Below, in pieces: positions 8,230 through 63,920 of a stretch of 64,000 nucleotides of DNA (position 1 is the stretch's first letter; every line of letters starts with the position of its first letter). Origin of the DNA: a bacterium (lineage in GTDB: Bacteria; Hinthialibacterota; Hinthialibacteria; Hinthialibacterales; Hinthialibacteraceae); assembly GCA_963662285.2 (NCBI GenBank), contig CAXXMV010000003.1, positions 192,001-256,000 on the forward strand, written 5' to 3'. The translations under genes were made by a program, and so were the position numbers. The notes beneath the pieces were generated by a model. It did not search any database. It was not told where the DNA came from and was given only the letters and a program-made list of their open reading frames with translations.

Positions 8230-11200
8230 ATGAATCAATTACGTCAGCAATTAAAATTCAATATGCAGTCAGTCTTTGCCTGTTGTTTAGTGTTGTTCGC
8301 ATTTTTGGGTTTTACGCAACAAAGCTACGGGCAACTCAAACCAGATATGGGCGTCGAATTCAGTCAAGTTGACTTTAATTATGAAAAGGCCCCTTGGCTG
8401 AATTCCAGTTGGGGACGTATGAGCATTGATGTAATGATGTTGTATGAGATGACTCAAATCGATCAAGGTTATATTAATGTATTCACCAAATCAGGTTGGC
8501 ATGTGGTCAATCTGCCAATAAGCATAAATGATTTAGAAAAACAGTCCAATATAGTGACCTATCTAAATCTTGGGTTGGGCGACCAGGAAATTATCGCAAA
8601 ACTTGAGGGGGAGGAATTAGAAAACTATTTGTTGGAAGTTTCCACCCAATTAAAAGAATTTGAGGCTTTGGTTACTTATACCAAAGAATCTTTCCAGGAA
8701 ATCCAGCGGGGAGAATATATCCCGTTTCCCTTGAAAGAATCCGTAATCTGGGATGCTCAAGGCGCCAGCGATATTGAACTTTCCACTATCATCTTACCGC
8801 CGCTTATATATCTGGAACTGAAATTTAATCCTGATTTACTGAATACATCGCATAGCCTGGACAGTTCCGCGAATGTGGAAGCGGCCAAGAATCAATGCTT
8901 CCCTATGTCCATCGCTAATAGTCTGCAATATTTGAAAGATAATTTTGACCTGCCGGTTCCTCACGAACATAAGCCGGGCTTGAAAGGCGATAATTCACTA
9001 GTAGGTCAGTTGGATCAGTTTGCGGATCGCACGGCTAGTTCCCGCCGATCAGGTTCAGGAACCTGGTTCACTCCCATGTTGACAGGGAAATTCAATTATC
9101 TGCAAGAGAATGGATTAGCCGACAAGTTGATTCATCGATACCAGGGTCGTGGTTGGGGAACACCGCCCAATCAGGCGCTGCCCGCTGGAGATTTTTCCGC
9201 TGCTGGCAGCACTGCGCTGGATCAAGGCAGTACGGTCACATTTGAATGGATCTGCGAACAGATCCGCCAGGGAGAAGATGTTGAACTGGTTTTCAGTTAC
9301 GATAATTCCAGAGGAGAAGCTACCGGAGGACATGCGGTGCGCGTCTATGAATGCGGCGTGGATGATGGAAGACCTTATATAAGATATCTACATGACCGTA
9401 ATCAAAATAATGATAATGCAGGTTTGGAAACCGTAAAAGTTTTCCTAGAGGATTTAGATAATGATGGCATGTTAAATCTTGGATCAAGAAGCATTGAAAT
9501 CCGTTTTGCTCTTTCTGAGTCTATGAGGGATAAAGATAGTACTCCTACTCCAACCAATACATCTTATATACCCCCAACTCCGGAAAACACGCCGACAATT
9601 GATAAGCCGACTCCTACTAAAACGGCTACGCCGACGCCAAGATTAACTCCTACTCCGACACAAACCAATGGCGATGATCCGCCGGATGCGCCCAAGGATT
9701 GTCCTATCTATTTCTCTATCGAAGAGCCTTATGTTTTACCGAATGGCGCATCTCATGGTGATATCCTTGTGCATAATCCCGGCGGTGAGGCCTATGTACT
9801 GACTGGCGGCGCCAATCAAGACCTTTTGAAGGAATTTATTCCTTTACCATCTGAAGTGCTTCGAATTGACGCCGGGCTGGATGGCTTTGATATTATCCAA
9901 CTTGATCAATCAGTTTCTAGCGATGAACCTTATGCACGCCATAAAATAATCTTCACGGTCGAAAAACCGATTAAAGTAAGCAACCCGAATCATTCCGCCT
10001 ATGGGGTAATTCTAAATGATGGCGATTTGCTACTCAATAATGGAGGAGTAATTCTCGCTCAAGCCCTGTTCGCTCCTCTTCAGTTACTAAATAGAACCGG
10101 GGGAGTCATTGAATATTTGGGTATAGATGCGATTGAATTAGAAGGTTTATTGAATATCTTTGATAAATTGGAAAACCGTGTTATTGGGAACTTGAAAGAA
10201 TTGGTTGAAATCAGCAATGGTGAAGCTATAAACATTTACTTTTCTTTTGAAGAAATTAATGAAGAATACACATCTAGTTCAGGAAGTTTGCTTCCCGAAC
10301 GTACAATAGTAGGCGCAGATGATCTGATAGGGATTCATGTTTCATCCAGTCATATAAGCGCATGGGTTGAACGGTCCGGCGCTGATGGAACTCCAACAAC
10401 CGCCCAAAGTTTATTTGTGGAATTTTCATCTCTTAATAATATGGGTTTGGATGCTGCGGGAACCTGTCTGCCTGAAGATAAAGCCTATTCTCATTTAGAA
10501 ACAGTCTATTTTTCGACGGAATTGAATGATGATATATATCCCATAGAATTCAAAGAAGGCGATTTGTTGGTTGATCGTTCGGAAAAACCATATAACGAAG
10601 TTATTGCCACTAATTTTTATCTGACCGGATTTGACTCAAAGGATTGGGGATTGGATGCTGTTGATCTTCATCCTGAACGGTTTGAGGAAAAACCTCAAGA
10701 TACGCCTACAACGCAACCAAAACCAATGCCCACGCTTACTCCAACTATATCAACCGATCAAAAGAACTGCGTGAAGGCCAGTGATTACTACACCAGCATT
10801 ATCGAAAATCTGGACTCAGTTGAACTTGGTCTAGTAGCAATCAAGTCAGCTATTAGCGCCAGCGGCAGTCCTCTCGGCTTAAGCATTCGTGATTGTTCTG
10901 AAGACGGTTTGATGGACGTTTGGGTGTCATCAAGCGAATTGAGCTACAGCAATCCAGCTGCGATAATCATGTCAGCTTCTATCTGTGCAGGCAACGCGCC
11001 ATCGATGGTTGAGGTCACCCTGCGTCAATACTACCAATGCAAACTGATCGCCTATGATGATAACGGAACTGTAGTTGATTCAGTAGATGCAGCAGTAGGC
11101 AGCGCAGAGCAGACTCTTACCCTGACCAGCGCCACAGGCATTCGCGTAATCGAACTCATCGGCGCCGAAATATGCATAACCAAAATCTGTTGGGAATGCG

Positions 11201-14200
11201 AGCCGATTGTTAAACCCACGCCGACTAAGCAAATAGTTGAATCAACGCCAACCTTGCCCATTGAAGAAAAGGATTGCGTTCAGGCCAGTGATATATATAC
11301 CAGCGATATGGATAATCTTGATTCAGTCGAATTAGGTCTAGTGTCGATCAAATCCGCTATAAGCGCCAGCGGCAGTCCATTAGGCTTAAGCGTACGTGAT
11401 TGTTCAGAAGACGGTTTGATGGATGTTTGGGTGTCATCAAGCGAATTGAGTTACGGTTCGCTCGCGTCAATTATAATGTCGCCCAACATATGCAACGGCA
11501 ACGCGCCATCGATGGTTGAGGTATACTTACAGCATTTCTATCAGTGCAAACTTATTGCCTATGATGACGGTGGAACTGTAGTTGATACGGTTGACGCGGC
11601 GCCGGATTCTACTCCGCAAATCTTGACCCTGACCAGCGCCACTGGAATAAGGATGATAGAAATTATCGGAGCGGAAATATGCATAACAAAAATCTGTTGG
11701 GAATGCGAGCTGATTGTTAAACCCACGCCGACTAAGCAAATAGTTGAACCAACGCCTACCTTGCCCATTGAAGAAAAGGATTGCGTTCAGGCCAGTGATA
11801 TATATACCAGCGATATGGATAATCTTGATTCAGTCGAATTAGGTCTAGTGTCGATCAAATCCGCTATAAGCGCCAGCGGCAGTCCATTAGGCTTAAGCGT
11901 ACGTGATTGTTCAGAAGACGGTTTGATGGACGTTTGGGTGTCATCAAGCGAATTGAGTTACAGCAATCCAGCTGCGATAATCATGTCAGCCTCCATCTGT
12001 GCAGGCAACGCGCCATCGATGGTTGAGGTCACCCTGCGTCAATACTACCAATGCAAACTGATCGCCTATGATGATAACGGAACCGTAGTTGATTCAGTAG
12101 ATGCAGCAGTAGGCAGCGCAGAGCAGACTCTTACCCTGACCAGCGCCACAGGCATTCGCGTAATCGAACTCATCGGCGCCGAAATATGCATAACCAAAAT
12201 CTGTTGGGAATGCGAGCCGATTGTTAAACCCACGCCGACTAAGCAAATAGTTGAATCAACGCCAACCTTGCCCATTGAAGAAAAGGATTGCGTTCAGGCC
12301 AGTGATATATATACCAGCGATATGGATAATCTTGATTCAGTCGAATTAGGTCTAGTGTCGATCAAATCCGCTATAAGCGCCAGCGGCAGTCCATTAGGCT
12401 TAAGCATACGTGATTGTTCAGAAGACGGTTTGATGGATGTCTGGGTGTCATCAAGCGATCCAAGTTACGGTTCGCTCGCGTCAATTATAATGTCGCCCAA
12501 CATATGCAATGGCAAAGCGTCATCGATGGTTGAGGTATACCTACAGCATTTCTATCAGTGCAAACTTATTGCCTATGATGACGGTGGAACTGTAGTTGAT
12601 ACGGTTGACGCGGCGCCGGATTCTACTCCGCAAATCTTGACCCTGACCAGCGCCACTGGAATAAGGATGATAGAAATAATCGGCGCCGAAATATGCATAA
12701 CCAAAATCTGTTGGGAATGCGAGCTGATTGTTAAACCCACGCCGACTAAGCAAATAGTTGAACCAACGCCAACCTTGCCCATTGAAGAAAAGGATTGCGT
12801 AAAGGCCAGCGATTTTTACGCCAGCGCCGTTGAGAATTTAAACTCGGTCGATTTAGGCTCGGTTTCGATTAAACCAGCCATTGAAATAACCGGCGCCATT
12901 TTCGGTTTAAGCGTGCGCGATTGTTCAGAAGACGGTTTGATGGACGTATGGGTTTCATCCAGTGAAGCAAGTTACAGCAGCCCCGCTGCGATTGTCATGT
13001 CTTCTGATATCTGCGCAGGTAAAGCGCCATCGATAGTAGAGGTTACCCTGCGTCATTACTTTGAATGCAAACTGGTAGCCTATGATGACGCCGGAACTGT
13101 AGTTGATTCAGTATTTGCAGCTGCAGGCAGTGCAGAACAAACTCTTACTCTAACCAGCGCCACCGGCATTCGCGTTATAGAAATAATCGGCGCGGAAATA
13201 TGCATCACCGAAATATGCTGGGAATGCGAGCCGATTGATAAACCTACGCCGACTGCTACTCCTCCAGAAGGTGATGAAGGATTAACTCCGGATGACGGAA
13301 TAACCTTCAATCAAGTAGATTTTATGTTTGAAAAATCCCAGTGGCAAAATTCCAGCTGGGGTCGGATAAGTATTAATCCTTATATCCTTACCCGCAACAC
13401 CAAGATCAGCCGGGGTTACTTGAATGTTTATACTGATAAGGGCTGGCATGTAGTAAACCTACCTATCAATGCGGACAATCTAACTAGCGCTGATACCCAA
13501 AGAACAGATTTGGTAACTTATTTCAACCTTGGAATTGTTGATCCAGCGGAAATTAAAGATAAAAGCGATGATGAGATTAAGTCCATTCTGTTAGAAAAAT
13601 CCTATCAGCTTACATCGTTCGTCGCTCATGTTACTTTCACTCAGGAACCAATTGTCAAGAGGGTATTGGGTCAATTAGTATCTTTCCCCATAGAAGAAAA
13701 CATTATATGGGATGCTCAGGGCGTAAGCGATATAACCATATCCGCTTTCCACTTGCCGCCGTTTATTATAACAGATATTTCAGATATCATATTGGATTCT
13801 ATATTCTCTTACCATACTCAACCACAGTCGGCTAACGTTGAAACCGCAAATAACCAATGCTTCCCCATGGCTATAGCCAATAGCCTGCAATACCTGGAAA
13901 ACGAGTTCAGCCTTTCTGTTCCTCATGACCATGTGATGGGACTCAAAGGCGACAATTCGCTGGTTGGTCAATTGGATTCCTACGCTAACCGCTCCGTCTC
14001 ATCCCGTCGCAGCGGTTCCGGTACATGGTTCACGCCCATGATAGACGGTAAATTCAAATATCTATCGGACAACAATCTATCCGGCGACCTGATCCATAAA
14101 TACCAGGGACGCGGCTGGGGATCGCCGCCCAACCAGGCGCTTCCGGCAGGCGACTACACATCAAATGGCAGCACCATTAAAGATGAAGGCGCTGTAGTCA

Positions 14201-17200
14201 CCTTCGATTGGATTTGTCAGCAAATCCAGGAAGGCGAAGATGTCGAACTTGTCTTCAGTTACGATGACGCATCGGGAAACGCCACTGGCGGCCATGCAGT
14301 AAGAGTATTCGAATGCGGTAACGTTCTTGGAAAGCCATATATAAAATACCTGCACGATAGCAACCAAAGCAATGATAGCGCTGGGTTGGAAACGGTTCAG
14401 GTATTTCTCGAAGACCTGGACGGCGACGGCATATTGAACCTTGGTTCAGCAAGCCGGGAAATCCGCTTCGCTATGGCTGAATCGATGAAAGAGGATACGA
14501 TACTAATTAATCCTAATATGGGATTAATGCTGGAGCAAGTCATTTTTACTTTTGATGAAACCCAGCAAATTGTCTCCAATTGGGGTCGCCTGGTGATTGA
14601 TCCTTATGCATTGCAAAAGAACCTTGGCGTCGAAAGGGGCTTTATCAACGTTTACAACGATAATGGCTGGTTGGTCATGAATCTTCCGCTTGATACTTCC
14701 TCAGCCGACGCCGACAGCAAGTTAGTAACTTATTTTAATCTGGGTCTGCAAGATGGCGAACAAATCGAACTCGTGAAGAGTATGGCGATTCACGCTGAAT
14801 TCTCTGTTAAGCCAGTTGATAAAACACCTATGGATCAAGATGGAAAACTGATACTATCGACGTTTGAGTTGCGCAATCCGGCCATCTGGGACGCCCAGGG
14901 AATCAGCGACAATGAGAACCCATCAATCAGCCTCGCTCCACCTTATATAATAAATAAAGATATTATCTTTACCTCACTCTTTGAAAAACATACTCAGGAA
15001 CACACATCAAATGTGCAGACTGCGCATAATCAATGCTTCCCCATGGCTGTAGCCAATAGCCTGCAATACCTCGAAAACGAGTTCGGTTTGTCAGTACCGA
15101 ATGACCATGTGATGGGATTGAAAGGCGATAATTCATTAGTAGGCAAATTAGATTCCTACGCTAACCGCTCCGTATCATCCCGTCGCAGCGGTTCCGGTAC
15201 ATGGTTTACGCCCATGATAGACGGTAAATTCAAATATTTATCGGAAAACAATCTGTCTGGAGACTTAATCCACAAGTACCAGGGACGCGGCTGGGGATCG
15301 CCGCCTAACCAGGCGCTTCCAGCAGGCGACTACACCGCCCATGGCATCACCATCAAAGATGAAGGCGCCGTAGTCACCATAGATTGGATTTGTCAGCAAA
15401 TTAAAGACGGAGAAGATGTCGAACTGGTATTCAGTTACGATGATGCATCTGGTAACGCCACTGGCGGCCACGCGGTGCGCGTGTATGAATGCGGTAAAAT
15501 TCTTGGCAAACCATATATCAAATACCTGCATGACAGCAACCAAAGCGACGATAGCGCTGGTTTGGAAACAGTATTGGTATATCCCGAAGATCTGGATGGA
15601 GATGGTATATTGAATCTTGGTTCAGCGAGCCGGGAGATCCGCTTCGCTATGGCTGAATCGTTTGTAAGCGAAATTGATAATACACCTACTCCCATAGCGC
15701 CTACGCCTACTAAGATAATTACCAAACCTACTCCTACTCCAGTAATTACCAAACCTACGCCTACTCCGGTAATTACTAAACCCACTCCTACTTCAATGAT
15801 TACCAAACCTACGCCTACTCCGGTAATTACTAAACCCACTCCTACTTCAATGATTACCAAACCTACGCCTACTCCGGTAATCACCAAACCTACGCCTACG
15901 CCTACTTTCTGGTATAGCGGAAATCCGGTTTATGACGATCTGGTAATATCCCAGGGATTTGGTGGAGAGACTCTGATCAATATACGTTACTACAATGAGA
16001 TCACCGATTCATTAACATCTATCCGTCACTCATTCATCGGAGCGCCAGGTGGATTTATATCTCGAGTTGGCGGTGGAACAGGACGAATGACCTATCTATC
16101 AGTGGGTGATTTGAATGGTGATGGAACAGAAGATATCATTACTTCTTTCGGACCGATAGTAGAAGAATCAGTTTTCCCCAACATCGTTGTCGTTCGTGAT
16201 TCCAAAACCAAGCAAGTAATCGGTAATTCTTTTGTAGCATTTCCGGTTGGCGACAAGACATCAGTACAGTTAAATTCAGGTGATGTACGAACCGCGGTAG
16301 GCGACTTTATCGGTTCAGGGCTGCCTCAGTTGGCGGTAACTCAAGGACAAGGCGGTAATGGCATCATCCGGCTTTATCAATACACCAACAAACTGCCGCC
16401 TAACAGCTGGGAGGTCGTCGGTCAGTTCAACGGTTTGCCTTTAGGATTGGTGGAACAAAAGGTATTGGATGATACCACCTATATCGGATTGACCTTGGCT
16501 GCGGGAGATTTGGATCAGGACGGTTTTGATGAATTAGTGGTCGGCCAATCCAATGGTCCCGCCTCGCAAACTATCTTCCATGTTCTGGATATTAACAGCG
16601 ACGGCGGCATCGCCAAACGGAATATCTATGCCGGATTCAAACCTCAATTCCGTGCTCATGGCGGCATCGAGTTAGCGGTTGGAGACCTTAACGGTGACAA
16701 ATATCCGGAAATCATTGTCGGCAATATGGGTAATCTGCGCAACTTTGGCGACCAACGTGACACCGTACCTTTGAATTTAGTAGGTATAATTTCACCCGTC
16801 ATTACGGATAAACAGATTACCGGATTCAGAAGACCTGCTGGAAAAAGCGTATTCAATGCCTTTTCTAATGAAGACAATCCTTCAGGCGCGATCAGCATGA
16901 CAGTCGGTGAATTCGATGGCAATCCGATCAATGGCAAAGAATTAGTCATTGGAACAGGCGCTTATATGGATATTGAGGGTATGAATACCAATTATCTTCA
17001 TCCCGCCGATGTTCCAAGATATAAGATTATGAAAGTTGAGTATGAAGAAGAAACCATTAGGAATATTAAAATATTAGGACCGACCAAGGGTTATGTGGCT
17101 TTCCTTGGCAAAGCGGTTCCTAGTAGTAAATCCATTTATCTGGCCGCCATTCCAAAATTTGTGATTCCCGATCTAATCAATACGCCAACCCCGACACCTA

Positions 17201-19803
17201 CGGCAACTCCGGTAAAACCATCGGTTGGTTTTACCGTACCGGGAAAACCATTATTCGTCGGTTCGTATGCCAAAATTCCGGTTGAAATCACTCCAGCCCT
17301 ATTCACTATCGATGAATTTGATTTCTTCGTACAGGAAGGCCCTAAAGGCGGCGCCGTTTCCATCTCCAAAGATGAAGACTTTGATCCATTGAATCCTGAT
17401 ATTATGCTGTTAGCCGGATATCAACCGGGAACCTATAAACTGCAAGCAAAACATACATCAACCGGAATAATCGTCGGTGAGAAGCAGTTTGAAGTGACTG
17501 ATCTTTGGAAGGGAGAGACGGAAGGTCCTGCAGTATGGTTCACGGGACTCAATCAAAATGGTTACGCCGGTTCAGCCTGGGGAGGCGGTCCCGCCGGTCC
17601 TCAAAACATTAACATTAAACCGGCTACCGGAACCAGGCGGGTCGCCATTCTGCTGGTAGACACAAGCTCCGAACGGTATTCAAACGATAATGCCATAATC
17701 CAGGGTCATAAAGACCGCTGGTTGAACGAAGCAATTAACGGCGTCAATGATGGCGGCAAGACATACAGCGTTTCTCACTTCTATCGTGAAGTCTCCTATA
17801 ATAATTTCACCCTTACCGGACAGGTTTTTGGTCCGGTAAGTCTGACCGGAGAATTTAAGGATTACATCAATCCTGATGGATCGCCCAAAGGCAGTTATTA
17901 TCAATCCTGCTTCACGGCTGGCGATAGCCTTATCAATTACAATAATTTCGACACGCTGGTCTGCGTATCCAAATCAGTCATCGCCTCCGGTTCCAGCGCA
18001 TGGCCCTATGCTTCAATCGGTGAATGGGGGCCGTTCACGACAGCTGAAGGTAAAGTGAACTATGGTTGCATCTCCATGCCCAATGAATGGGGAACAACCT
18101 CAGCGCGTGAAATCTACGAAACCCTGTCGCACGAGATGGGGCATAACCTCGGTTTAGGCGATATGTATACTCCCAAAGTCGCCATGCCCAACTCACCTCC
18201 AACTTACCGTAATCTGGAAGACTGGGACATGATGGATGATGATAACATCTTCCCCCATTTCTCGGTTATGCACCGTATGATGCTGGGCTGGGTTCCGGCC
18301 AGTTGGCTGCAAACATTCAATTTCGCTAACGGCGGAGTTCCCATAAACCAGACTATCAGTTTGCATCCCATAGAACTGGGCGCTCCACCGGCTGGTAAAA
18401 AGACCGCAGTCGAAATCCGCATTGCTGACGGATGGAATTACTACTTCGAGTATCGATCAAAACAAGCTGCTCAAATCGCCGATCAAGGCGTTCCTGGTAA
18501 TGGTCGCATCCTGGGTTCTGATGGAGTCTCGGCGCCCTGGGTTCCTCCCATCGCCCGGCCTTACATACTATTGCTCAATAATGACGCCGACGGCGATGGC
18601 AGCGTCTTGGATAATGGAGATGATTACAAGGAGACCGATTTCTCTGATCCAGCGTATCCCACAGATTTCATGGTTGAAGCCAGCGGGATAGATGGCTCGA
18701 AGGGTGATATCACTATCAAATACGGCGTCAATGGCAAGCCTGATCCTTCAATCCGGCCTTGGCCGGCTAGTGCGGATCGTCGTTATCAAAGCCCGGACAT
18801 CGAAGTTCAGAACACCCGCAATCTGGCGGATGCTGCATGGTTCAACGTGCCCTGGATCAACCACTCCAATACCATTATCGCAAAAGTCAAAAACCGGGGA
18901 ACGCTCAACGCCCCTGGCGTGACAGTTAACTTCTATATCAAGAACTTTAATGTTGGAGGCGCTCCGGAAACCTATCTTGGAACCAGTACGAAGGATATTG
19001 CTGCTGGCGCTACGGTTGATTTCACTTATCCATCCTGGGTTCCACCCAGCGGCGGGCATTACTGCATCATTGTACGGATTCCGCTATATCAGAATCCCAA
19101 CGATCCCACTGTTGTTGAAATGACCGAACTCAACAACATGGCGCAATCAAATTACGACCGCTTCATCTCAGCCACCGCATCTCCCGCGAAACGCGTCATA
19201 TCATTTGTTGAAGTAGGCAATCCCTATGATGAAACCAGCCGCGTCTTTGTCACCGCAGGTCAAAGCAACCCGTTCTATCGGACATACCTGGAACATGCAT
19301 GGCTGGTCTTAAAACCCAATGAGACCAAGAAAGTCAGGGTAATGTTCGAATACGCTACGGATGCTTTGGACAGCGCAGGAATCGATTTCCAGGATGATTG
19401 GACCAAGCATCAACGGTTGCCCAATAACGTAGATTTCGCATCCTTCGTCGATTATCCCAGGGATTTTCCAAGACACGCCAAGCATGAATCAGGCGGCGTC
19501 CAGGTGCAGGTCGTAACCGGTCGCGCCACCAAAATTATCGGTATGGAAATTGGTAAAGAACGCGCCTATGGTTCAGTCGTAACGGTTGATAATGGAACCG
19601 GCGTCTTTGGCGGCAAGGTCATTTTGATTCTGACGGTCAAAGTGAATAACGAAGACAAGGAAGTGTACGAGGAAGCGCAAGTCGATGCCCAAGGTCATTT
19701 CAGCGCATCCATAACAACATTGAATTGGGAACGCCTACAGGTCTACTACGTCCCATCATCGGGATATGCAGATTCATACAGCGATGTAATATCAAGTCCA
19801 TAA
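8230..19803 (+). CDS. Giant secreted multidomain protease: 3 putative papain-like Cys protease modules, novel repeat domain, 5 Cys-rich modules, FG-GAP repeats, M6 (immune inhibitor A) metalloprotease, CARDB-like C-terminus
   Basis: Uninterrupted ORF (track start 8218 GTG; ATG 8230 preferred, GAGGG 5 nt upstream). Signal peptide. QCFPMxxANSLQYL...GGHAVRV...YLHD three times. GDLNGDG-type FG-GAP motifs at ~16100-16950. HEMGHNLGLGDMY at 18130-18168 with WDMM Met-turn. PT-rich linkers between modules. Confidence 0.85.
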   Translation: MNQLRQQLKFNMQSVFACCLVLFAFLGFTQQSYGQLKPDMGVEFSQVDFNYEKAPWLNSSWGRMSIDVMMLYEMTQIDQGYINVFTKSGWHVVNLPISINDLEKQSNIVTYLNLGLGDQEIIAKLEGEELENYLLEVSTQLKEFEALVTYTKESFQEIQRGEYIPFPLKESVIWDAQGASDIELSTIILPPLIYLELKFNPDLLNTSHSLDSSANVEAAKNQCFPMSIANSLQYLKDNFDLPVPHEHKPGLKGDNSLVGQLDQFADRTASSRRSGSGTWFTPMLTGKFNYLQENGLADKLIHRYQGRGWGTPPNQALPAGDFSAAGSTALDQGSTVTFEWICEQIRQGEDVELVFSYDNSRGEATGGHAVRVYECGVDDGRPYIRYLHDRNQNNDNAGLETVKVFLEDLDNDGMLNLGSRSIEIRFALSESMRDKDSTPTPTNTSYIPPTPENTPTIDKPTPTKTATPTPRLTPTPTQTNGDDPPDAPKDCPIYFSIEEPYVLPNGASHGDILVHNPGGEAYVLTGGANQDLLKEFIPLPSEVLRIDAGLDGFDIIQLDQSVSSDEPYARHKIIFTVEKPIKVSNPNHSAYGVILNDGDLLLNNGGVILAQALFAPLQLLNRTGGVIEYLGIDAIELEGLLNIFDKLENRVIGNLKELVEISNGEAINIYFSFEEINEEYTSSSGSLLPERTIVGADDLIGIHVSSSHISAWVERSGADGTPTTAQSLFVEFSSLNNMGLDAAGTCLPEDKAYSHLETVYFSTELNDDIYPIEFKEGDLLVDRSEKPYNEVIATNFYLTGFDSKDWGLDAVDLHPERFEEKPQDTPTTQPKPMPTLTPTISTDQKNCVKASDYYTSIIENLDSVELGLVAIKSAISASGSPLGLSIRDCSEDGLMDVWVSSSELSYSNPAAIIMSASICAGNAPSMVEVTLRQYYQCKLIAYDDNGTVVDSVDAAVGSAEQTLTLTSATGIRVIELIGAEICITKICWECEPIVKPTPTKQIVESTPTLPIEEKDCVQASDIYTSDMDNLDSVELGLVSIKSAISASGSPLGLSVRDCSEDGLMDVWVSSSELSYGSLASIIMSPNICNGNAPSMVEVYLQHFYQCKLIAYDDGGTVVDTVDAAPDSTPQILTLTSATGIRMIEIIGAEICITKICWECELIVKPTPTKQIVEPTPTLPIEEKDCVQASDIYTSDMDNLDSVELGLVSIKSAISASGSPLGLSVRDCSEDGLMDVWVSSSELSYSNPAAIIMSASICAGNAPSMVEVTLRQYYQCKLIAYDDNGTVVDSVDAAVGSAEQTLTLTSATGIRVIELIGAEICITKICWECEPIVKPTPTKQIVESTPTLPIEEKDCVQASDIYTSDMDNLDSVELGLVSIKSAISASGSPLGLSIRDCSEDGLMDVWVSSSDPSYGSLASIIMSPNICNGKASSMVEVYLQHFYQCKLIAYDDGGTVVDTVDAAPDSTPQILTLTSATGIRMIEIIGAEICITKICWECELIVKPTPTKQIVEPTPTLPIEEKDCVKASDFYASAVENLNSVDLGSVSIKPAIEITGAIFGLSVRDCSEDGLMDVWVSSSEASYSSPAAIVMSSDICAGKAPSIVEVTLRHYFECKLVAYDDAGTVVDSVFAAAGSAEQTLTLTSATGIRVIEIIGAEICITEICWECEPIDKPTPTATPPEGDEGLTPDDGITFNQVDFMFEKSQWQNSSWGRISINPYILTRNTKISRGYLNVYTDKGWHVVNLPINADNLTSADTQRTDLVTYFNLGIVDPAEIKDKSDDEIKSILLEKSYQLTSFVAHVTFTQEPIVKRVLGQLVSFPIEENIIWDAQGVSDITISAFHLPPFIITDISDIILDSIFSYHTQPQSANVETANNQCFPMAIANSLQYLENEFSLSVPHDHVMGLKGDNSLVGQLDSYANRSVSSRRSGSGTWFTPMIDGKFKYLSDNNLSGDLIHKYQGRGWGSPPNQALPAGDYTSNGSTIKDEGAVVTFDWICQQIQEGEDVELVFSYDDASGNATGGHAVRVFECGNVLGKPYIKYLHDSNQSNDSAGLETVQVFLEDLDGDGILNLGSASREIRFAMAESMKEDTILINPNMGLMLEQVIFTFDETQQIVSNWGRLVIDPYALQKNLGVERGFINVYNDNGWLVMNLPLDTSSADADSKLVTYFNLGLQDGEQIELVKSMAIHAEFSVKPVDKTPMDQDGKLILSTFELRNPAIWDAQGISDNENPSISLAPPYIINKDIIFTSLFEKHTQEHTSNVQTAHNQCFPMAVANSLQYLENEFGLSVPNDHVMGLKGDNSLVGKLDSYANRSVSSRRSGSGTWFTPMIDGKFKYLSENNLSGDLIHKYQGRGWGSPPNQALPAGDYTAHGITIKDEGAVVTIDWICQQIKDGEDVELVFSYDDASGNATGGHAVRVYECGKILGKPYIKYLHDSNQSDDSAGLETVLVYPEDLDGDGILNLGSASREIRFAMAESFVSEIDNTPTPIAPTPTKIITKPTPTPVITKPTPTPVITKPTPTSMITKPTPTPVITKPTPTSMITKPTPTPVITKPTPTPTFWYSGNPVYDDLVISQGFGGETLINIRYYNEITDSLTSIRHSFIGAPGGFISRVGGGTGRMTYLSVGDLNGDGTEDIITSFGPIVEESVFPNIVVVRDSKTKQVIGNSFVAFPVGDKTSVQLNSGDVRTAVGDFIGSGLPQLAVTQGQGGNGIIRLYQYTNKLPPNSWEVVGQFNGLPLGLVEQKVLDDTTYIGLTLAAGDLDQDGFDELVVGQSNGPASQTIFHVLDINSDGGIAKRNIYAGFKPQFRAHGGIELAVGDLNGDKYPEIIVGNMGNLRNFGDQRDTVPLNLVGIISPVITDKQITGFRRPAGKSVFNAFSNEDNPSGAISMTVGEFDGNPINGKELVIGTGAYMDIEGMNTNYLHPADVPRYKIMKVEYEEETIRNIKILGPTKGYVAFLGKAVPSSKSIYLAAIPKFVIPDLINTPTPTPTATPVKPSVGFTVPGKPLFVGSYAKIPVEITPALFTIDEFDFFVQEGPKGGAVSISKDEDFDPLNPDIMLLAGYQPGTYKLQAKHTSTGIIVGEKQFEVTDLWKGETEGPAVWFTGLNQNGYAGSAWGGGPAGPQNINIKPATGTRRVAILLVDTSSERYSNDNAIIQGHKDRWLNEAINGVNDGGKTYSVSHFYREVSYNNFTLTGQVFGPVSLTGEFKDYINPDGSPKGSYYQSCFTAGDSLINYNNFDTLVCVSKSVIASGSSAWPYASIGEWGPFTTAEGKVNYGCISMPNEWGTTSAREIYETLSHEMGHNLGLGDMYTPKVAMPNSPPTYRNLEDWDMMDDDNIFPHFSVMHRMMLGWVPASWLQTFNFANGGVPINQTISLHPIELGAPPAGKKTAVEIRIADGWNYYFEYRSKQAAQIADQGVPGNGRILGSDGVSAPWVPPIARPYILLLNNDADGDGSVLDNGDDYKETDFSDPAYPTDFMVEASGIDGSKGDITIKYGVNGKPDPSIRPWPASADRRYQSPDIEVQNTRNLADAAWFNVPWINHSNTIIAKVKNRGTLNAPGVTVNFYIKNFNVGGAPETYLGTSTKDIAAGATVDFTYPSWVPPSGGHYCIIVRIPLYQNPNDPTVVEMTELNNMAQSNYDRFISATASPAKRVISFVEVGNPYDETSRVFVTAGQSNPFYRTYLEHAWLVLKPNETKKVRVMFEYATDALDSAGIDFQDDWTKHQRLPNNVDFASFVDYPRDFPRHAKHESGGVQVQVVTGRATKIIGMEIGKERAYGSVVTVDNGTGVFGGKVILILTVKVNNEDKEVYEEAQVDAQGHFSASITTLNWERLQVYYVPSSGYADSYSDVISSP
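10768..13233 (+). repeat. Five intragenic tandem repeats of 507 bp (169 aa)
   Basis: First Cys codon of each unit at 10768, 11275, 11782, 12289 and 12796 (exact 507-bp period). Each unit's module ends in EICITKICWECE (EICITEICWECE in unit 5). Confidence 0.95.
15721..15906 (+). repeat. 27-bp tandem repeat encoding a (TKPTPTPVI/TKPTPTSMI)n linker
   Basis: Six full units plus a partial one, e.g. ACCAAACCTACGCCTACTCCGGTAATT. Variant order PVI,PVI,SMI,PVI,SMI,PVI. Confidence 0.95.
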
Positions 19804-19832: not shown

Positions 19833-19870
19833 AAGAGGGGAATGAGTCAATCATTCCCCTCTTGATTTGT
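19833..19870 (+). terminator. Rho-independent terminator after the giant protease gene, probably bidirectional
   Basis: 13-bp perfect stem AAGAGGGGAATGA-gtcaa-TCATTCCCCTCTT followed by a T-rich tract, 30 nt after the stop, between convergent genes. Confidence 0.8.
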
Positions 19871-28314: not shown

Positions 28315-28448
28315 ACCAAGTTCCCTCTCCCATCGTGAGATCATGGGCGCCAAGGGCAAGACCGCATTGCGGTCAGCCCTTGATCAAACCACCTATTGTT
28401 GGGTGAAAATCACTTAATTTAATGATATTGGCGTCTAGGGTGAGGGGG
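28315..28448 (+). repeat. Composite REP-like element: family-C palindrome split by a segment carrying a family-B palindrome
   Basis: ACCAAGTTCCCTCTCCCATCGTGAGA (28315-28340) and CTAGGGTGAGGGGG (28435-28448) match the two parts of the intact element at 63921-63964. GGGCGCCAAGGGCAAGACCGCATTGCGGTCAGCCCTTGATCAAACCAC (28345-28392) lies between them. Confidence 0.75.
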
Positions 28449-29728: not shown

Positions 29729-31369
29729 ATGAAACGTTATATAACTCTGTCCAGTATTCTTTTGATTAGTCTATTATTTATTCATGCTGCGAGAGCGCAG
29801 AATATCAATACAACAGAAAATTTCCCCGATCCCAATTTCAAATCTTATGTGGAAGAATTCATGGGAGTCGCTCCTGGCGGAGAATTCACCGCAACAGAAG
29901 CGGCGGCAAAAACAGATATATTTGATTGCAGCGGGAGAAAAATCAAGAGTGTTGAGGGATTGCATTATTTTCCAAATATCACGAGATTGGTTTGTTATAA
30001 CAACTATCTGACCATTTTAGACGTATCAAACTTCAAGGCTTTGCAAGTGATTTCTTGTGGTCAAAACCAAATCAAAAACTTGGATGTAACCCATAATACG
30101 GATTTGTATGCTCTAAGTTGCTCTGATAACCAATTAGCGGAATTAGATGTATCGTGCAACGCAGTTCTAGAACATTTAAGTTGTAGTGGTAACCAAATAA
30201 CTGATCTGAATCTATCATCAAAACCAAATATGACGGAATTAAGGTGTGGGAATAATCTATTAACAGAGCTGGATTTATCATCCAATACGTCTTTGATGAG
30301 ATTGCATTGTGAGGATAACCAATTATCAGAACTGGATTTATCATCCAACTTAGATTTATTTTTGATATTATGCGATGATAACAATTTAACTGAACTAGAC
30401 ATCGAATCCAACACTGCTTTGCGAGACTTTAGTTGTAACAACAACCAGTTAACAAAATTGAATTTAACCAATTCGAGTTTGATAATATTGTTTTGTAACT
30501 TTAACCAGTTGACAGAATTAGACATATCATCCAACAAATCTTTACGCTGTTTGGAATGCTCTAGTAATAAATTAACCAACTTAAATCTATCATCCAACAG
30601 ATTTTTGTTTCGTGTTTGTTGTGATAACAACCAGTTGGCGGAATTGGATTTTTCGGGCAACAGGTCTTTGACTTGGTTGAATTGCGGTAACAACCCTTTA
30701 TCCATCCTGAATGTATCGTCCAACAGGATATTGGAACGCTTTTACTGTGATAACAACCATTTATCGATCCTGGATGTATCTAATAAAAAGAACTTGGAAT
30801 ATTTTGATTGTAGTAATAACCAATTAAGCAATATGGATATATCGTCCAACAAGGCTTTGTATGAACTTAATTGTATTAATAATAAATTAACCGAACTCGA
30901 TGCATCGTCTAATCCTGCTTTGGTAAATTTGCGATGTAGCGGTAATCAGTTAACAGAATTGGATTTGTCTGCTAATACGTCATTGGCCTGGTTGTATTGC
31001 AGTAACAACCAGTTAACCGAATTGGATTTATCAACAAATACCGATTTAGTCTGGTTTCAATGCAATGACAATAAGTTAAAGGAACTTGATCTATTAAATA
31101 ATACAAGAATAAATGAAATGGATTGTCATAATAACCAAATTCAAGATATATCAAGTATGGTTTCGTTAAGTCATCTAGCAACTGCAAATGTAATGTATAA
31201 CAACCTCGATTATGACGATTGGCCTGATGTGAAATCTATGATTGAGCATTTGGGTAAACCTGTTTTCTCAGAAGATAAGCTGATACGCGGTTTTGCTTAT
31301 TCTCCTCAAAACAATTTTGATCCCTATAACTTTAATACAAGTATAAAAGACTGGATGTTACACTACTAA
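29729..31369 (+). CDS. Secreted leucine-rich-repeat protein (internalin-J-like, 21-aa Cys-containing repeats)
   Basis: Signal peptide ARA-Q; NFPDPNF cap; about 19 repeats of LxxLxCxxNQLTELDLSxN; C-terminus TSIKDWMLHY. Confidence 0.9.
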   Translation: MKRYITLSSILLISLLFIHAARAQNINTTENFPDPNFKSYVEEFMGVAPGGEFTATEAAAKTDIFDCSGRKIKSVEGLHYFPNITRLVCYNNYLTILDVSNFKALQVISCGQNQIKNLDVTHNTDLYALSCSDNQLAELDVSCNAVLEHLSCSGNQITDLNLSSKPNMTELRCGNNLLTELDLSSNTSLMRLHCEDNQLSELDLSSNLDLFLILCDDNNLTELDIESNTALRDFSCNNNQLTKLNLTNSSLIILFCNFNQLTELDISSNKSLRCLECSSNKLTNLNLSSNRFLFRVCCDNNQLAELDFSGNRSLTWLNCGNNPLSILNVSSNRILERFYCDNNHLSILDVSNKKNLEYFDCSNNQLSNMDISSNKALYELNCINNKLTELDASSNPALVNLRCSGNQLTELDLSANTSLAWLYCSNNQLTELDLSTNTDLVWFQCNDNKLKELDLLNNTRINEMDCHNNQIQDISSMVSLSHLATANVMYNNLDYDDWPDVKSMIEHLGKPVFSEDKLIRGFAYSPQNNFDPYNFNTSIKDWMLHY

Positions 31370-42024: not shown

Positions 42025-42064
42025 GGGTGCCAAGGGCAAGACCGCAATGCGGTCAGCCCTTGAT
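42025..42064 (+). repeat. Family-B palindrome
   Basis: GGGTGCCAAGGGCAAGACCGCAATGCGGTCAGCCCTTGAT, nearly identical to 28345 and 58011. Confidence 0.85.
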
Positions 42065-42094
42065 GCAATAACTTAAGATATAGAGTCAACCTCT

Positions 42095-46427: not shown

Positions 46428-46764
46428 TCCCCTCTCCTGGCGGGAGAAGGCTAGGGTGAGGGATTTATTAGACATACTGGGTGCCAAGGGCAGTGTATTT
46501 TCTGCCCTTGATGCGATCACCTGTGTATCTCAGCGCGTAGGGTGGGTCACGCCTTATCGACCCACCGGGAATAATTTCTTAATTTGGTAACGCGTAGGAT
46601 GGGCTAAAAGCCGCGAAGCGGCGTAGCCCACCGGGAATAATTTCTTAATTTAGTAACGCGTAGGATGGGCTAAAAGCCGCGAAGCGGCGTAGTCCACCGG
46701 GAATAATTTTTTGATTTGGTAACGCGTAGGATGGGCTAAAAGCCGCGAAGCGGCGTAGCCCACC
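46428..46764 (+). repeat. Mosaic REP cluster (BIME-like): family C, family B, then four family-A palindromes, the last three in a 66-bp tandem
   Basis: C at 46428-46462; B variant at 46479-46511; A at 46537, 46594, 46660, 46726, separated by the near-identical linker GGGAATAATTTCTTAATTTGGTAACGC. Confidence 0.9.
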
Positions 46765-46853
46765 AAGAATAACTTAATGGCATTGGTTAGAAGGGTTTGC
46801 GCTTAGACATAAGTTATTACATGAATCGCTCCAACACAGGAATAATAAATAAT

Positions 46854-47975
46854 ATGACCCGCAATCCAAGAATCGGCATAGAGAGTTCAATATTAACGCG
46901 CTCACGGGCAGGCATCGGATTTTACACCGACAACCTGGTCAGATGTCTGGCGGATCTACCTGGTGATGAAGAATATACCCTGCTATACAACCGCCCGCTT
47001 CCAAAAATGGATTTACCAGCGCGGATGCGTCACTCAATGCAAGGCCCGCGCAGCACCCACTTGTGGGCCCAAACTCGTTTGTCATCTATATGCAGAGGGC
47101 AGGGCATCGACCTGCTGCATAGCCCCGGCCAGGGAATCCCATTGTTGTATGATGGACCGTCGGTTTTAACCATCCACGACCTTTCTCCATTAATTTTCCC
47201 TCAGCAGAAAGATTTTACCTCACGTTTAATCTGGAACAGTTTGGTTCCAATCATGGCGCGCCGGGCGGATCATATAATAACAGTTTCCGATAATACCAAG
47301 CGCGATGTAATCGACCTGCTGGGCATAGCTGAACACAAAATAACCCGAATCTATGAAGCTGCATCAGATATTTTTTATCCCGAACCGGATGAAGCAAGCA
47401 AAGCCCGTTTTCGCAAGGACAAGCATCTGGAGCCGGGATATATCCTTGCCGTAGGAACCTTGGAGCCGCGTAAAAAATACCCCTTCCTCTTCAAACTATT
47501 CGCCAAGTGGTTGAAACACTCAAAACCCGACGCCACCCTGGTGGTAGTAGGTAAAGACGGTTGGTTATACGATGAAATATACGAAACCTTCGAATCGCTC
47601 AATATAAAGCGCAACGTCCGCTTTGAAGGATATGTAGCCGATCTGGATTTAATGAGGATGTACTATTCAGCGGCTCAGTTTTCTATTCTCACGCCGCAAT
47701 ATGAAGGTTTCTGGCTGCCCGGTTTGGAGTCAATGGCCTGTGGAACCCCGGTTATAGCGCCAAACCATTCATCCATAACCGAGGTGGCCGGTAAAGCGGG
47801 ATGCCTGATCGACAGCTGGGACTATGATGAATGGATAGAAGCCATGGATCGCCTATGGATGACGGATGAACGAGAAGAGTGGTCAAAAAAAGGCATAAAA
47901 CGAGCCAAAGATTTCTCGTGGCAAAAAGCAGCCAAAGAAACCCTGGAAGTATACAGATCAGTTCTATCCATGTAG
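46854..47975 (+). CDS. Glycosyltransferase family 4 (mannosyltransferase-like)
   Basis: AGIGFY, TIHDL, ITVSDNTKRD, VGTLEPRK, YEGFWLPGLESMACGTPV, FSWQKAA. ATG 46854 preferred over track start 46797. Confidence 0.9.
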   Translation: MTRNPRIGIESSILTRSRAGIGFYTDNLVRCLADLPGDEEYTLLYNRPLPKMDLPARMRHSMQGPRSTHLWAQTRLSSICRGQGIDLLHSPGQGIPLLYDGPSVLTIHDLSPLIFPQQKDFTSRLIWNSLVPIMARRADHIITVSDNTKRDVIDLLGIAEHKITRIYEAASDIFYPEPDEASKARFRKDKHLEPGYILAVGTLEPRKKYPFLFKLFAKWLKHSKPDATLVVVGKDGWLYDEIYETFESLNIKRNVRFEGYVADLDLMRMYYSAAQFSILTPQYEGFWLPGLESMACGTPVIAPNHSSITEVAGKAGCLIDSWDYDEWIEAMDRLWMTDEREEWSKKGIKRAKDFSWQKAAKETLEVYRSVLSM

Positions 47976-48062
47976 GGTGCGCCCCTCGTGGGCGCCCGGA
48001 GGTACAAGCACAACAGATTAAAAAAATCAGGGTGCCAAGGGCAGTGTCTTGTCTGCCCTTGA
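47972..48062 (+). repeat. Family-D plus family-B composite
   Basis: GTAGGGTGCGCCCCTCGTGGGCGCCC (47972-47997, identical to 57961-57986), then GGGTGCCAAGGGCAGTGTCTTGTCTGCCCTTGA (48030-48062). Confidence 0.85.
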
Positions 48063-57919: not shown

Positions 57920-57960
57920 TACGATTCTAACCAATATATAATATAATTATATCTAGAAAT

Positions 57961-58058
57961 GTAGGGTGCGCCCCTCGTGGGCGCCCTGTTTAAAGCAATC
58001 ACCAATGGCCGGGCGCCAAGGGCAAGACCGCAATGCGGTCAGCCCTTGATCAAACCAC
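57961..58058 (+). repeat. Family-D plus family-B composite
   Basis: D at 57961-57986. B at 58011-58058 matches 28345-28392 at 47 of 48 nt, including the ATCAAACCAC tail. Confidence 0.88.
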
Positions 58059-58075
58059 TTTAGAGTAACTGCTAA

Positions 58076-60840: not shown

Positions 60841-63800
60841 CTACCAACGGTCAACCCGTGCGCTTATATTGGCATTAAGCGTACGTTGTATCTTAACCAG
60901 TGATTCAGCAAGATGGTCGCGGGTATAGTCATCAATTGTTTCCACGCCTTCAATGGCTTTCACCATAGTCGATAAATGCTTCTCCAGGTCTACCAGCGTA
61001 CGCCAGGCTTGGGTGCGTGCGTCATCCGGCATTCCGTAAGGCGCCTGTAATGTTATCTCTATCATGCGTTTCAGGTGCAGGCGTTGCAGCGTCCTGCGGT
61101 AAGTGGAAATTAATGGATTTTTGTTGCTATAGGATTTATCAAGATCAATATTGACTTTTCCATCAGAATCCAGCCGAATGTTGCTATACACTTCATTCCA
61201 GATTCCCTGCTTAAAACGGCGGAAAAACTCTGGAACAGTGAAAGCGATCTGCCCTTCGTTTAGTTGCTTTTCCGCATCAATCAAACGGCGCATTATTAGT
61301 GGAGAATAAGCCGAGTACAAAATAACGTCATACATATTCTCAACCATTGAACTGAGTGAATATTCACTGGATGCTGTTGATAAACTTGATCCCCAGTGAT
61401 ACCATTTTTCCGCCGCCATCATATTGAGCATCTCAGGATCAACGTCAAAAATCTTGTCGGAGAATATCGTCTCAACAATAAAATTAACCGCTTCACGCTG
61501 ACGCGCAGCAGATACTGGCTCCAATGGCGCTGGATCGTTGGGGCCGCCCTTTTTGACGCGGTTAACGTATTGCCCGCCAATGTATTTCAAGGCGAAACTC
61601 GTACTGTCGAAATAATAACTCAACAGACGGTTATATGCCATACGCACCATTAGGTAGGTATCGCCATCCTTTACCAGGTTAGGTAATTTCGGGATAGTGT
61701 CCTGAACCAACTGAGTGGTTTGCTTGCCGAACGCCAGTGGATCATTGCCTAGATCAAAGGTGTTGCACAATGGATCAAGGCTTCTTCCGTAAGCGTCTTC
61801 GTCCGTGCCATAAGTATACTTGGGCGTCTCAGCCTTTTCCGCAATAGCGTTAAGTATGCTGGCTTCCGTCTCTCCCGTGGCTGGATTAATTTCTCTATAG
61901 GCGTATTCAACCGCCAGATAATCATAAGGGCCGATGGTCGGTTCGAAATAGTAACCTTGCTCAACTCCTTCTGGAGCGATGTTGATGGGTAGGTATTCCA
62001 TAATGCTGCTGGTCAGACCTGTTTCTTTAGTCAACGCTTTGTTATGCAAATCCTCCAGGGGATGCAAGGTGCTGGCTTCAAAATTATGCCGGAAGCCTAG
62101 TACATGACCCCATTCATGGCATATCAGAGAGAATAAATACTGGTTGATGAAATCGTCTTTGACCTCTTCTGAAATATTATCTATCCCAGCGCGGGCCGAC
62201 ATGATTGTCATTCCGAAAGCCGCTTGATCCGCTTTGGCGCTTTGGTAGTCGGTCATCATTTGGCGGGCATTAACCGGCGCTTCGCCTGTCAAACGTTCTT
62301 TTAACATTGCTACGCGGTCCGGTTCACGGACGCGGCGTAAATTCAACAATCCGCGAAGATTCTCCGCTTCGACCAGAAAACTACCGTGTAAAATCTCACC
62401 CGTCCTGGGATCAGCCACCCACTGAGCCACTCCGCCATAAGCCATATCATGCGATTCATTCCAATGGATGGTGTTATAACGTGAATCCGAAACATCCCAA
62501 CTGGCGTCATCCGGTTGCTCTTTCACCACCAGGGCGCCTTTAACGCCGATCTTTTCAAACGCTTTGTTCCATTCCAGCAAACCATCCCGAATCGCTCCAC
62601 GGTATTTCTTGGGAACCGTGTTTTCGATCCATACCACTATCGGCTTGACTGGAGGTGACATCTCCAGTTCGGGGCTGGCTTTGCGGACGTCCCATTTGCT
62701 GATATAACGAACAAAGCGCGTTGCCCGTTCATTATCCGTAAAATCTATATGAGCCTCAAGAAAATGTCCAATCCGCGTATCAGCTACGCGGGGTTTGAAA
62801 TCAGGATTGTCTTTCAACTCGCGGATATCCAATAACAAGTCCAATTGAACGCTGCCCGAATGAGGAACCGCTATGGTTCCCCCCATGCCGCCAGAACGGA
62901 ATGCGTAAGATGTACGGACAACTATATTCTCAGGGAACACCTTGGTTTTCTTTACATAACTGTTGCTGCGGTCGAAACCATAGGCGCCGCCCAGCGAACT
63001 GTTCACATCACGGCCCATGCTGAAAAAGTCGGTCAGTAAAAATTTCCCCATCTCGATCACGTAAGCCGAGTTTTCCGGATTGGTAACATCAATAGGAAAT
63101 GAAGCTATTATCGCATCACTATAATTCTTGGCGATAGCCGCTTCTTTTTGAGAGTCTCCAGGAGCGACGAAACGGGTATTTTTTTGGATCAATTGCAACT
63201 TATTATCAATTTTACGGAACTGCACTACCAATCCGCCCATGTATGTACCCGGCTTCACCCAACCTGAACCCAATCCAGTAGCCAGTGTTCCAGAAGCCAT
63301 CAGGTTCTTGTCGGTCTGCTCTGGTAGAATTTCCCAATATATTTTCTCGTCTTTGGCTGTATAAACCGTAAATAATCCGGCTTCTTTGGTGGCGTCTTTG
63401 ATCAAGGTAGCGAATTTACCTGGTTTCTCAGGTTTATCAGCTGGCTTTGGTTTTGCCGCGCCATTGGCAGGAGGTTTTTGACCGGCAGGTTTAGCTGGTT
63501 GCTTCACTGCTCCATTCTCATTTTTGGTCATCTCACCGGAAATTGTTCCTCCGCTGATCGTAACGTCGGAATTAATAAATATAGCCTGTATGCCATAGTT
63601 ATAGACTTTTATATCGCCTACTTCATTCTCTGTAGAGTTTTCAGATTTGGATTCAGTTTTAGTTTTATTGACGTTACCGTCTTTAGAATCCTTGTCTGAT
63701 TTAACCTCGACTTTAACTTCACTAGCCTTCTTTTCAGCGGTTCCGCTTTTAACTTCCGCCTCGGCTTTATGCTCTTTTTCACCATAGGCGGGACAGATCA

Positions 63801-63855: not shown

Positions 63856-63920
63856 CAATAAGCCTCCTGAAAAATTTCTAATGAATATCTTGTACTTTGA
63901 CCAACTTATTATGCCGTATA

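Follow-up and report, generated by a model that had tools for sequence, protein, structure and literature searches.

A triplicated papain-like module with a β-sandwich N-domain: a probable new clan CA family of extracellular protease zymogens

Introduction

The window analyzed here, a stretch of 64,000 nucleotides from a Hinthialibacteraceae bacterium (GenBank assembly GCA_963662285.2, contig CAXXMV010000003.1, positions 192,001 to 256,000), encodes a giant protein with three copies of a module that bears Cys, His, and Asp residues in papain-like order. The questions raised by this locus are what kind of enzyme the module is and what its N-terminal domain (N-domain) does. A first-pass annotation, made from the DNA sequence, had proposed a new clan-CA-like family, with a conserved or gene-converted catalytic core and a diversifying pro/specificity domain. 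The module most likely represents a new clan CA family with a new type of pro-domain, and its predicted structure and sequence conservation are most consistent with an extracellular protease zymogen. The papain clan thereby gains a large family without annotation, which comprises 1,291 clusters at the 50% identity level and occurs in bacteria as well as archaea, and another apparently independent off-switch: a β-sandwich pro-domain in which plug residue and S2 pocket co-evolve. The chemistry is of a known kind, and the triplication and gene conversion are secondary to the family and its pro-domain.

All three modules sit inside one open reading frame (ORF) and are not separate genes:

8230..19803 (+): single giant ORF starting with ATG (3,857 aa), predicted to encode a secreted multi-protease protein (ORF list, sequence)
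8341..8766 (+): putative pro-domain 1, a predicted β-sandwich with an A-Q-G-A plug at its end (Gly 8761, S2 residue Ala 8764)
8845..9522 (+): papain-like core 1 (Cys 8896, His 9331, Asp 9394; DxDxDG loop 9451-9477)
13288..13725 (+): putative pro-domain 2, with an A-Q-G-V plug at its end (Gly 13720; Val 13723, which is model residue 147)
13810..14484 (+): papain-like core 2 (Cys 13858, His 14293, Asp 14356; DxDxDG loop 14413-14439), the probable conversion donor
14512..14904 (+): putative pro-domain 3, with an A-Q-G-I plug at its end (Gly 14899, Ile 14902)
14986..15660 (+): papain-like core 3 (Cys 15034, His 15469, Asp 15532)

The Cys and His codons lie where the first-pass annotation had placed them, the Asp follows the His by 21 residues in every copy, the residue six positions before the Cys is E, E, and Q in copies 1, 2, and 3, and the N-domain motifs are present. 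The three copies had also been placed correctly, except that copy 3 is in frame from 14509 rather than 14508. They are 54-69% identical in protein, which, together with membership of a large family, excludes a chance origin.

Papain-like fold and active site

Residue numbers (1-401) are those of an AlphaFold2 model of module 2 built with 109 sequences, which attains a predicted local distance difference test (pLDDT) score of 94.8 and a predicted template modeling (pTM) score of 0.93. According to DSSP, Cys192 opens helix 192-208, His337 is in strand 333-347, and Asp358 ends strand 350-358. PMC10318531 defines papain-like proteins by a core helix that precedes an antiparallel sheet of 4-5 strands; the Cys stands at the N-terminus of the helix, and consecutive strands bear the His and the third residue, which is polar. 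The module model has this clan CA layout, both in the order of helix and antiparallel sheet and in the positions of Cys, His, and polar residue, so that the structure prediction suggested by the first-pass annotation places the three residues, by secondary structure, in the canonical arrangement. A hydrogen-bond contact among Cys, His, and Asp is implied only by the fold match.

Foldseek returned 25 PDB chains at E ≤ 1e-3, papain-like throughout among the matches listed; the best are IdeS/Mac-1 (2au1, E 2.8e-5), prostaphopain B, and staphopains (E 3e-5 to 3e-4). In VIA, core residues 172-401 align to clan CA chains with Z scores of 13.5-11 at no more than 15% identity. The best chain is 22oc (Z 13.5, 164 residues aligned, root-mean-square deviation (rmsd) 3.2), followed by staphopain C (13.1), xylellain (12.7), and PeiR (12.2), then by IdeS, pro-Der p 1, and a C39-like peptidase (all 11.9), and phytochelatin synthase (11.1). 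No single family stands out structurally, which is what a family of its own in clan CA would be expected to show. The 22oc entry, released in 2026, is titled “P210 CD lyase”; the literature search found no paper for it, and our guess is that it is the catalytic domain of a phage lysin.

Conservation among homologs, on which the first-pass annotation had let its case depend, is nearly complete. In 263 non-redundant modules (<90% identity), the Cys is present in 262, the His in 263, and the Asp in 262. Also conserved are the Gln preceding the Cys (Q191, 262/263), the Gln three residues after the Asp (Q361, 261/263), and the Asn at position −8 (256/263). Serine replaces the catalytic Cys in P0201, which retains the His and Asp. 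The oxyanion Gln that had been expected at position −6 is not strict: 170 modules have Gln and 86 have Glu, with at least 40 changes on the tree, and the position co-varies with residue 362, the neighbor of invariant Q361. Two further covariation signals concern the core. The pair 311-344 is likely a disulfide, and the links 377-385-392 fall in the DxDxDG loop, a likely Ca2+ site, the pattern of which is matched in 189/255.

The N-domain as a plug-type pro-domain

Modeled alone, the N-domain is a seven-stranded β domain (pLDDT 90.9). It has no Foldseek match at E ≤ 1e-3 and no chain at Z ≥ 5 among 48,161, its best Z (4.3) being to generic Ig/FnIII sandwiches; the predicted domain is without a clear PDB match, which does not in itself prove a new fold. 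Q10, N47, W54, and N58 are invariant. Its last strand leads into the A-x-G-Phi tail, in which Ala144 is found in 209/263 and Gly146 in 257/263. Position 145 is E in 120 and Q in 43 but neither in 100 (G, A, or T in 64), and position 148 is Gly in 159 or Ser in 37. The spacer from Gly146 to Asn184 varies in sequence and length (29-80 residues, median 35, n = 302) and has a lower pLDDT of 77-85.

Three linked lines of evidence bear on the function of this tail. The first is where VIA alignments begin. Those of the zymogens pro-Der p 1, procaricain, procathepsins X, H, and K, xylellain, Lpg2622, and SERA5 start at model residues 138-147, whereas most mature papain-type enzymes start at 172-175. 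The alignment of Cwp84 begins at model residue 147, matched to Cwp84 Val66, which is the propeptide residue occupying S2 (PMC4089489, section 3.2).

The second line is mean-field covariation across 263 sequences (effective number 193). Among inter-domain pairs, 147-249 ranks first, and 147-338, 147-323, and 147-248 are within the top six. Against the S2 set 193/248/249/323/338/396, residue 147 has a mean z of 4.58, compared with 0.88 for the next N-domain position; in the re-pairing controls (three shuffles and one nearest-neighbor swap) the best position reaches at most 1.27. Papain S2 comprises residues 67, 68, 133, 157, 160, and 205 (PMC9712828). Residue 338 directly follows the catalytic His, like papain 160, and the remaining S2 equivalences are by analogy rather than residue-level superposition. 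The third line is size: that of residue 147 is inversely correlated with the summed size of the pocket residues (rho −0.47, n = 230), with residue 338 alone behaving oppositely (+0.39). When 199 of 258 rows were classed and the 59 with intermediate residues left out, a large 147 accompanied a small 323 in 11.5 independent pairs versus 0.4 (median p 0.001, with values up to 0.065); for a small summed pocket, the figures were 10.0 versus 1.3 (median p 0.02). The pattern is one of big knobs in big holes.

These observations argue strongly that the β-sandwich N-domain is an inhibitory pro-domain, not a specificity domain, and that its A-x-G-Phi tail would lie over the catalytic Cys with Phi in S2. 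The pro half of the earlier “pro/specificity” proposal is supported by the zymogen alignments and the covariation, and the diversifying half is not. Between species, the N-domains are orthologous by position and retain their invariant residues, and there is no sign of specificity diversification, since every window copy has the same S2-pocket residues. Because plug and pocket co-vary, the P2 preference should be predictable from sequence: a small residue for the F-W-F-V-A pocket of the window, and Leu or Phe for G/A-M-A-G-V pockets.

None of 11 candidates of 89-284 aa is a stand-alone N-domain, in a search of low sensitivity that did not extend to longer core-less fusions. A search for core-only proteins of 124-396 aa gave 10 matches, of which the 8 viewed (4 by their starts only) are fragments or bear an N-domain, with P0247 and P0249 left out.

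Relation to known families

No model in Pfam, NCBIfam, or PHROGs covers the module, in line with the new family proposed in the first-pass annotation, and no description of the family was found in a literature search that left subscription journals and MEROPS outside its scope. A PDB sequence search gave cathepsin B alone (E ≥ 0.4). RickCE_cat was considered and rejected: its matches (E 0.18 for copy 3, 7.6e-4 for the whole protein) are below the cut-off and cover only the His-strand region. The comparisons below draw on PMC10318531, PMC10380794, PMC9712828, PMC11833123, and PMC4089489.

Staphopains (C47) are likewise compact secreted bacterial papain-fold cores (8oig, Z 13.1, 165 residues aligned, rmsd 3.7), and 1x9y, prostaphopain B, is a zymogen with a large non-I29 pro-domain. 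However, the module is 10-13% identical to them, PF05543 matches 0/43 members, the third residue of the module is Asp, and the N-domain model does not have the prostaphopain chain among its 50 best matches.

IdeS/Mac-1 (C66), the best Foldseek match, is also the source of Atlas feature matches (0.89-0.90 to Mac-1 clusters), and it shares a Cys-His-Asp triad with a His-Asp spacing of 22 versus 21 in the module. The C66 active site includes Lys84 (Cys−10) and Asp286 (Asp+2) (PMC11833123), whereas the module conserves neither a Lys nor an Asp at the corresponding positions, 182 and 360, both of which vary. PF09028 matches 0/43 members and 0/12 distant members. Treponema T-Mac has an N-terminal β-sandwich on an active Mac-like core (same source), but T-Mac chains align only from model residue 168-173, and no shared plug or N-domain is seen.

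In C1A zymogens and in Cwp84, the latter a surface-anchored maturase of Clostridioides, part of the propeptide passes through the cleft and one of its residues fills S2, as is proposed for the module. The residue six positions before the Cys lies at the oxyanion site in Cwp84 (Gln110/Cys116) and may do so in the module, and the module GGHAV resembles the cathepsin B His strand (E about 0.5). The differences lie in the predicted pro-domain, a seven-stranded β-sandwich in place of a propeptide with the ERFNIN/GNFD motifs (PMC9712828), and in the active site, with Cys-Phe-Pro, His...Asp (262/263) instead of His...Asn, and tolerance of Glu at −6. The Peptidase_C1 profile matches 0/43 members at E ≤ 1 and none of the window copies.

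C39/C39_2 and PeiR show the same Q-6...C...H...D pattern (Z 10.6-12.2). C39_2 is the nearest library family, with PF13529 matching 2/12 distant members (E 0.003 and 0.005; 17.8 and 18.6 bits versus a cut-off of 24), but neither PF03412 nor PF13529 reaches its cut-off in any of 43 members, the core of the module is larger and preceded by a pro-domain, and no ATP-binding cassette (ABC) transporter fusion is listed in 34 long members. The module would work like a C1A/Cwp84-type zymogen yet fails membership of C1A, C39, C47, and C66.

Family distribution and export

A search with module 2 returned 151 proteins at E ≤ 1e-3 among 3,581 candidates. Of the 1,291 clusters retrieved by the profile search, 761 remain at 1e-10 and 402 at 1e-30, and scanning species genomes with a pattern turned up 79 loci, scattered over many bacterial phyla as well as Thermoplasmata, Methanolobus, and Woesearchaeota. 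No phage match was found for the module.

One N-domain and one core are present in 226 of 243 proteins examined. Core-only profile matches amount to 8/243 and, since none has a signal-like start, these eight appear truncated. P0185 and P0241 each have five diverged modules, the N-domains of which were missed by the profile but are recognizable by eye. A second diverged module occurs in P0141, P0158, L040, L042, L046 (labelled Zixiibacteriota), and L047; its core escapes the profile and keeps Cys, His, and Asp-like motifs. The family extends past the reach of the profile.

A hydrophobic signal-like N-terminus is found in 213/243 proteins, compared with 26/1,215 internal control windows, and in 41/243 the C-terminus consists of a membrane helix and a basic tail. 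Surface anchors include PEP-CTERM (3/43), IPTL-CTERM (3/43), a type IX secretion system (T9SS) tail (3/34), and dockerin (2/34). Many members consist of a signal peptide and the module alone, with or without an anchor, and the module is also fused to very diverse cargo. The module is usually single-copy and comes with a signal peptide and swappable surface anchors. Many “hypothetical” PEP-CTERM, IPTL-CTERM, and T9SS surface proteins thereby acquire a likely function. Small single-module members occur in cultured organisms, Methanolobus sp. ZRKC3 and Fontivita pretiosa, and make the predicted P2 preference directly testable.

Proposed mechanism and alternatives

Each module is read here as the zymogen of an extracellular papain-like cysteine peptidase, plugged by the tail of its N-domain, with a probability of roughly 0.7. 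The computation directly provides the fold, the Cys-His-Asp conservation, an N-domain in every apparently complete member, the export signals, and the anchors; from there, support declines in the order plug, cleavage, calcium, and substrate class. The module would be exported as a zymogen in which the last N-domain strand continues as A-x-G-Phi over the catalytic Cys, so that Phi (Ala, Val, or Ile in the window copies) plugs the S2 pocket. Beyond the plug, a variable Pro-rich linker of ~25 residues would lead to a mature start near model residue 174, and a cut in this linker, made by the enzyme itself or in trans, would free the cleft. The DxDxDG loop would bind Ca2+, and the freed enzyme would be a cysteine endopeptidase with a small hydrophobic P2, acting at or outside the cell surface. 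In the giant protein, three zymogens and an M6-like metalloprotease would be joined, along with domains for binding or spacing, in a single secreted multi-protease, the most likely task of which is to digest external protein or to mature proteins of the surface. Once activated, the two internal modules would break up the chain.

Several observations weigh against this reading. Glutamate, a poor oxyanion donor, occupies position −6 in about a third of the modules, including copies 1 and 2. VIA reports end points only, and rows other than those cited start anywhere from residue 1 to 79. The S2 set was picked partly after the first covariation ranking, with the papain equivalents assigned by analogy, and contacts between the bodies of N-domain and core (27-369, 25-357) are not above the shuffled background (top z 8.0 versus 6.7-7.2). 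The AlphaFold model and the covariation are not independent, because the sequences are common to both. Finally, no conserved gene neighbors are found across the 79 loci, so the neighborhood offers no pointer to a substrate; the largest neighbor cluster, ABC ATPase-like by eye, occurs at 6/79 loci.

One alternative is an enzyme of papain fold that is not a general protease, i.e., one acting on Gln/Glu side chains (a deamidase or transglutaminase) or a hydrolase of cell-wall peptides. The Glu at −6, the frequent Q/E flips there, the invariant Gln before the Cys and three residues after the Asp, and the E or Q at 145 would then reflect another chemistry, and the top VIA rows include 22oc, PeiR, and phytochelatin synthase. 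Such an identity is nevertheless unlikely, as the complete hydrophobic S2 pocket, the G-x-G strand, and the propeptide plug are peptidase traits and position 145 is often neither E nor Q. A wall-directed role is further opposed by the lack of a wall-binding domain among the top 5 families listed per protein for 34 long homologs, by the lack of a phage match, and by the occurrence of the family in Thermoplasmata and Methanolobus, which are not known to have murein.

Similarly unlikely is that the same plug is never cleaved and the N-domain remains as a permanent cap or exosite, with A-x-G-Phi swinging out reversibly in response to Ca2+, pH, or substrate; this would be the “specificity domain” of the first-pass annotation in a regulated form. 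The pTM of both domains together, the invariant N-domain residues, and the β-sandwich that T-Mac retains on its active core (PMC11833123) are compatible with a cap, and internal modules could remain in one chain. In contrast, the variable, less confidently modeled spacer is as expected of a cleavable linker, and mature papain-type enzymes start at its end.

A device for self-processing only, in which A-x-G-Phi-G binds forward as a substrate (P2 = 147, P1 = Gly/Ser148) to release or mature fused partners, would account for the Gly or Ser at 148 and for the diverse cargo, but is very improbable. Many members have no cargo to release, and the order-preserving propeptide alignments imply the propeptide direction; propeptides run through the cleft in reverse to substrates. 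A catalytically dead adhesin repeat or an assembly artifact, suggested by the repeat-rich nature of the giant protein, can be set aside given the nearly invariant triad, the 85 mismatches between cores 2 and 3, and the recurrence of the three-module layout in an independent genome (L002) and in fragments L001, L003, and L011.

Triplication and gene conversion

The plugged-zymogen reading applies to each copy, and the history of the copies is a separate matter. In the N-domain tree, window pro-domain 3 falls in a clade (98/98) made up of the position-3 N-domains from three genomes, the position-2 group is supported at 91/90, and position 1 does not resolve. The triplication is old: it is shared with relatives and arose before the lineages split. 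In the core tree, the cores 3 of other genomes form their own clade (99/96), whereas window core 3 is nearest to window core 2.

Cores 2 and 3 had been described as near-identical in DNA at a 1,176-bp offset. The offset holds, but the DNA identity is 86.6%, with 85 mismatches in 635 nt, a longest exact run of 32 nt, and a proportion of synonymous differences (pS) of 0.46; other core pairs are 67-68% identical. Compared across genomes, cores 2 and 3 are 89% identical in the window versus 74% in L002 and 76% in L001/L011. At four-fold sites, 61/94 (0.65) are identical between window cores 2 and 3, compared with 0.25-0.41 for other window-core pairs, up to 0.50 for pairs among GC-richer relatives, and 8/20 for window N-domains 2 and 3. 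Synonymous sites of the N-domains are saturated. Of 14 diagnostic sites in window core 3, 10 have the core-2 state, 2 the core-3 state, and 2 neither.

We read this pattern as one old conversion of core 3 by core 2 in this lineage, in which about 15026-15660 was probably largely overwritten. The gene conversion suspected in the first-pass annotation is supported to this extent, although the approximately unbiased (AU) test did not reject grouping core 3 with other position-3 cores (p 0.42) and the core 2 + 3 pair has weak support (67/20). Since cores 2 and 3 are only 74-76% identical in two relatives, the conversion would be a lineage event and not a standing cassette system.

A more elaborate scheme, doubtful at present, combines a self-dismantling zymogen chain, an ordered activation cascade, a new inhibitor fold, and a rebuilt oxyanion site that frees position −6 for Glu. 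Cuts in the chain would leave core 2 tethered by ~10 residues to pro-domain 3, which could re-inhibit core 2 because core 3 was converted to the core-2 type, and the invariant Gln before the Cys or that at Asp+3 would serve the rebuilt oxyanion site.

The giant protein and its surroundings

The giant ORF product is P0123 of the searched protein library. A GAGGG ribosome-binding-like site precedes the ATG at 8230, an alternative GTG start at 8218 would give 3,861 aa, and no plus-strand promoter match was found upstream. The remaining features are:

8230..8331 (+): signal-peptide-like N-terminus, putative boundary (sequence; a hydrophobic N-terminus is common in homologs)
9700..10680 (+): ~330-aa domain with recurring GLDA/GDLL-like motifs, without a Pfam, NCBIfam, or PHROGs match
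10768..13230 (+): five Cys-containing repeats of ~145 aa with a 169-aa period and Pro/Thr linkers between them, family unmatched in libraries
15670..15903 (+): Pro/Thr-rich linker with a 27-nt repeat unit
15931..17124 (+): FG-GAP repeat region, probable β-propeller, approximate limits (PF01839, E 6.8e-15, above cut-off)
17617..18669 (+): M6-like zinc metalloprotease domain, HExxH at 18130, approximate limits (TIGR03296, E 3e-14; 53 bits, under the family cut-off of 110.8)
18793..19143 (+): CARDB Ig-like domain (PF07705, E 1e-6, above cut-off)
19833..19863 (no strand): perfect 13-bp inverted repeat directly 3′ of the stop, a likely terminator (sequence)

A weak Ig-like tail, C-terminal to CARDB, closes the protein. 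One to three copies of the GLDA-motif domain lie next to the protease module in L002, L003, L014, L019, L020, L024, and L059; that this domain folds as a propeller is a guess. Among the Cys repeats, 1 and 3 are 95% identical and 2 and 4 are 97% identical, which suggests a recent two-unit duplication. These repeats are also found in L005 (4 copies), L002, and P0128, and their nearest Atlas clusters (0.88-0.90) are nameless.

The closest named relatives are L002, labelled Ca. Omnitrophota and identical in its three-module layout, and P0098, labelled Ca. Hinthialibacter; L001, L003, and L011 are pieces of this layout from one further genome. In L011 (1-5355), a gingipain C25 peptidase with its propeptide takes the place of the M6-like domain of the window protein, so the C-terminal protease is swappable. 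C39 and S8 domains have been proposed as cutters of giant Omnitrophota proteins, according to a preprint (bioRxiv 10.1101/2023.11.21.568195).

Within window positions 1-28107, the giant gene stands among predicted secreted glycoside-hydrolase-/esterase-like genes (by eye), mostly on the opposite strand. No Rfam match was found in the window. Three tandem 66-nt intergenic repeats, 94-98% identical and REP (repetitive extragenic palindromic)-like, occupy 46562-46775, and dispersed palindromic intergenic elements of two kinds, also REP-like, are found at 28345-28392, 42025-42078, 46479-46511, 47970-48062, and 57959-58064. Positions 29729-31369 (+) encode a 546-aa secreted leucine-rich-repeat protein with a 21-residue period, and 60841-63966 (−) encodes a ~1,040-aa protein with an HExxH motif, which presumably resembles zinc-dependent metalloproteases.

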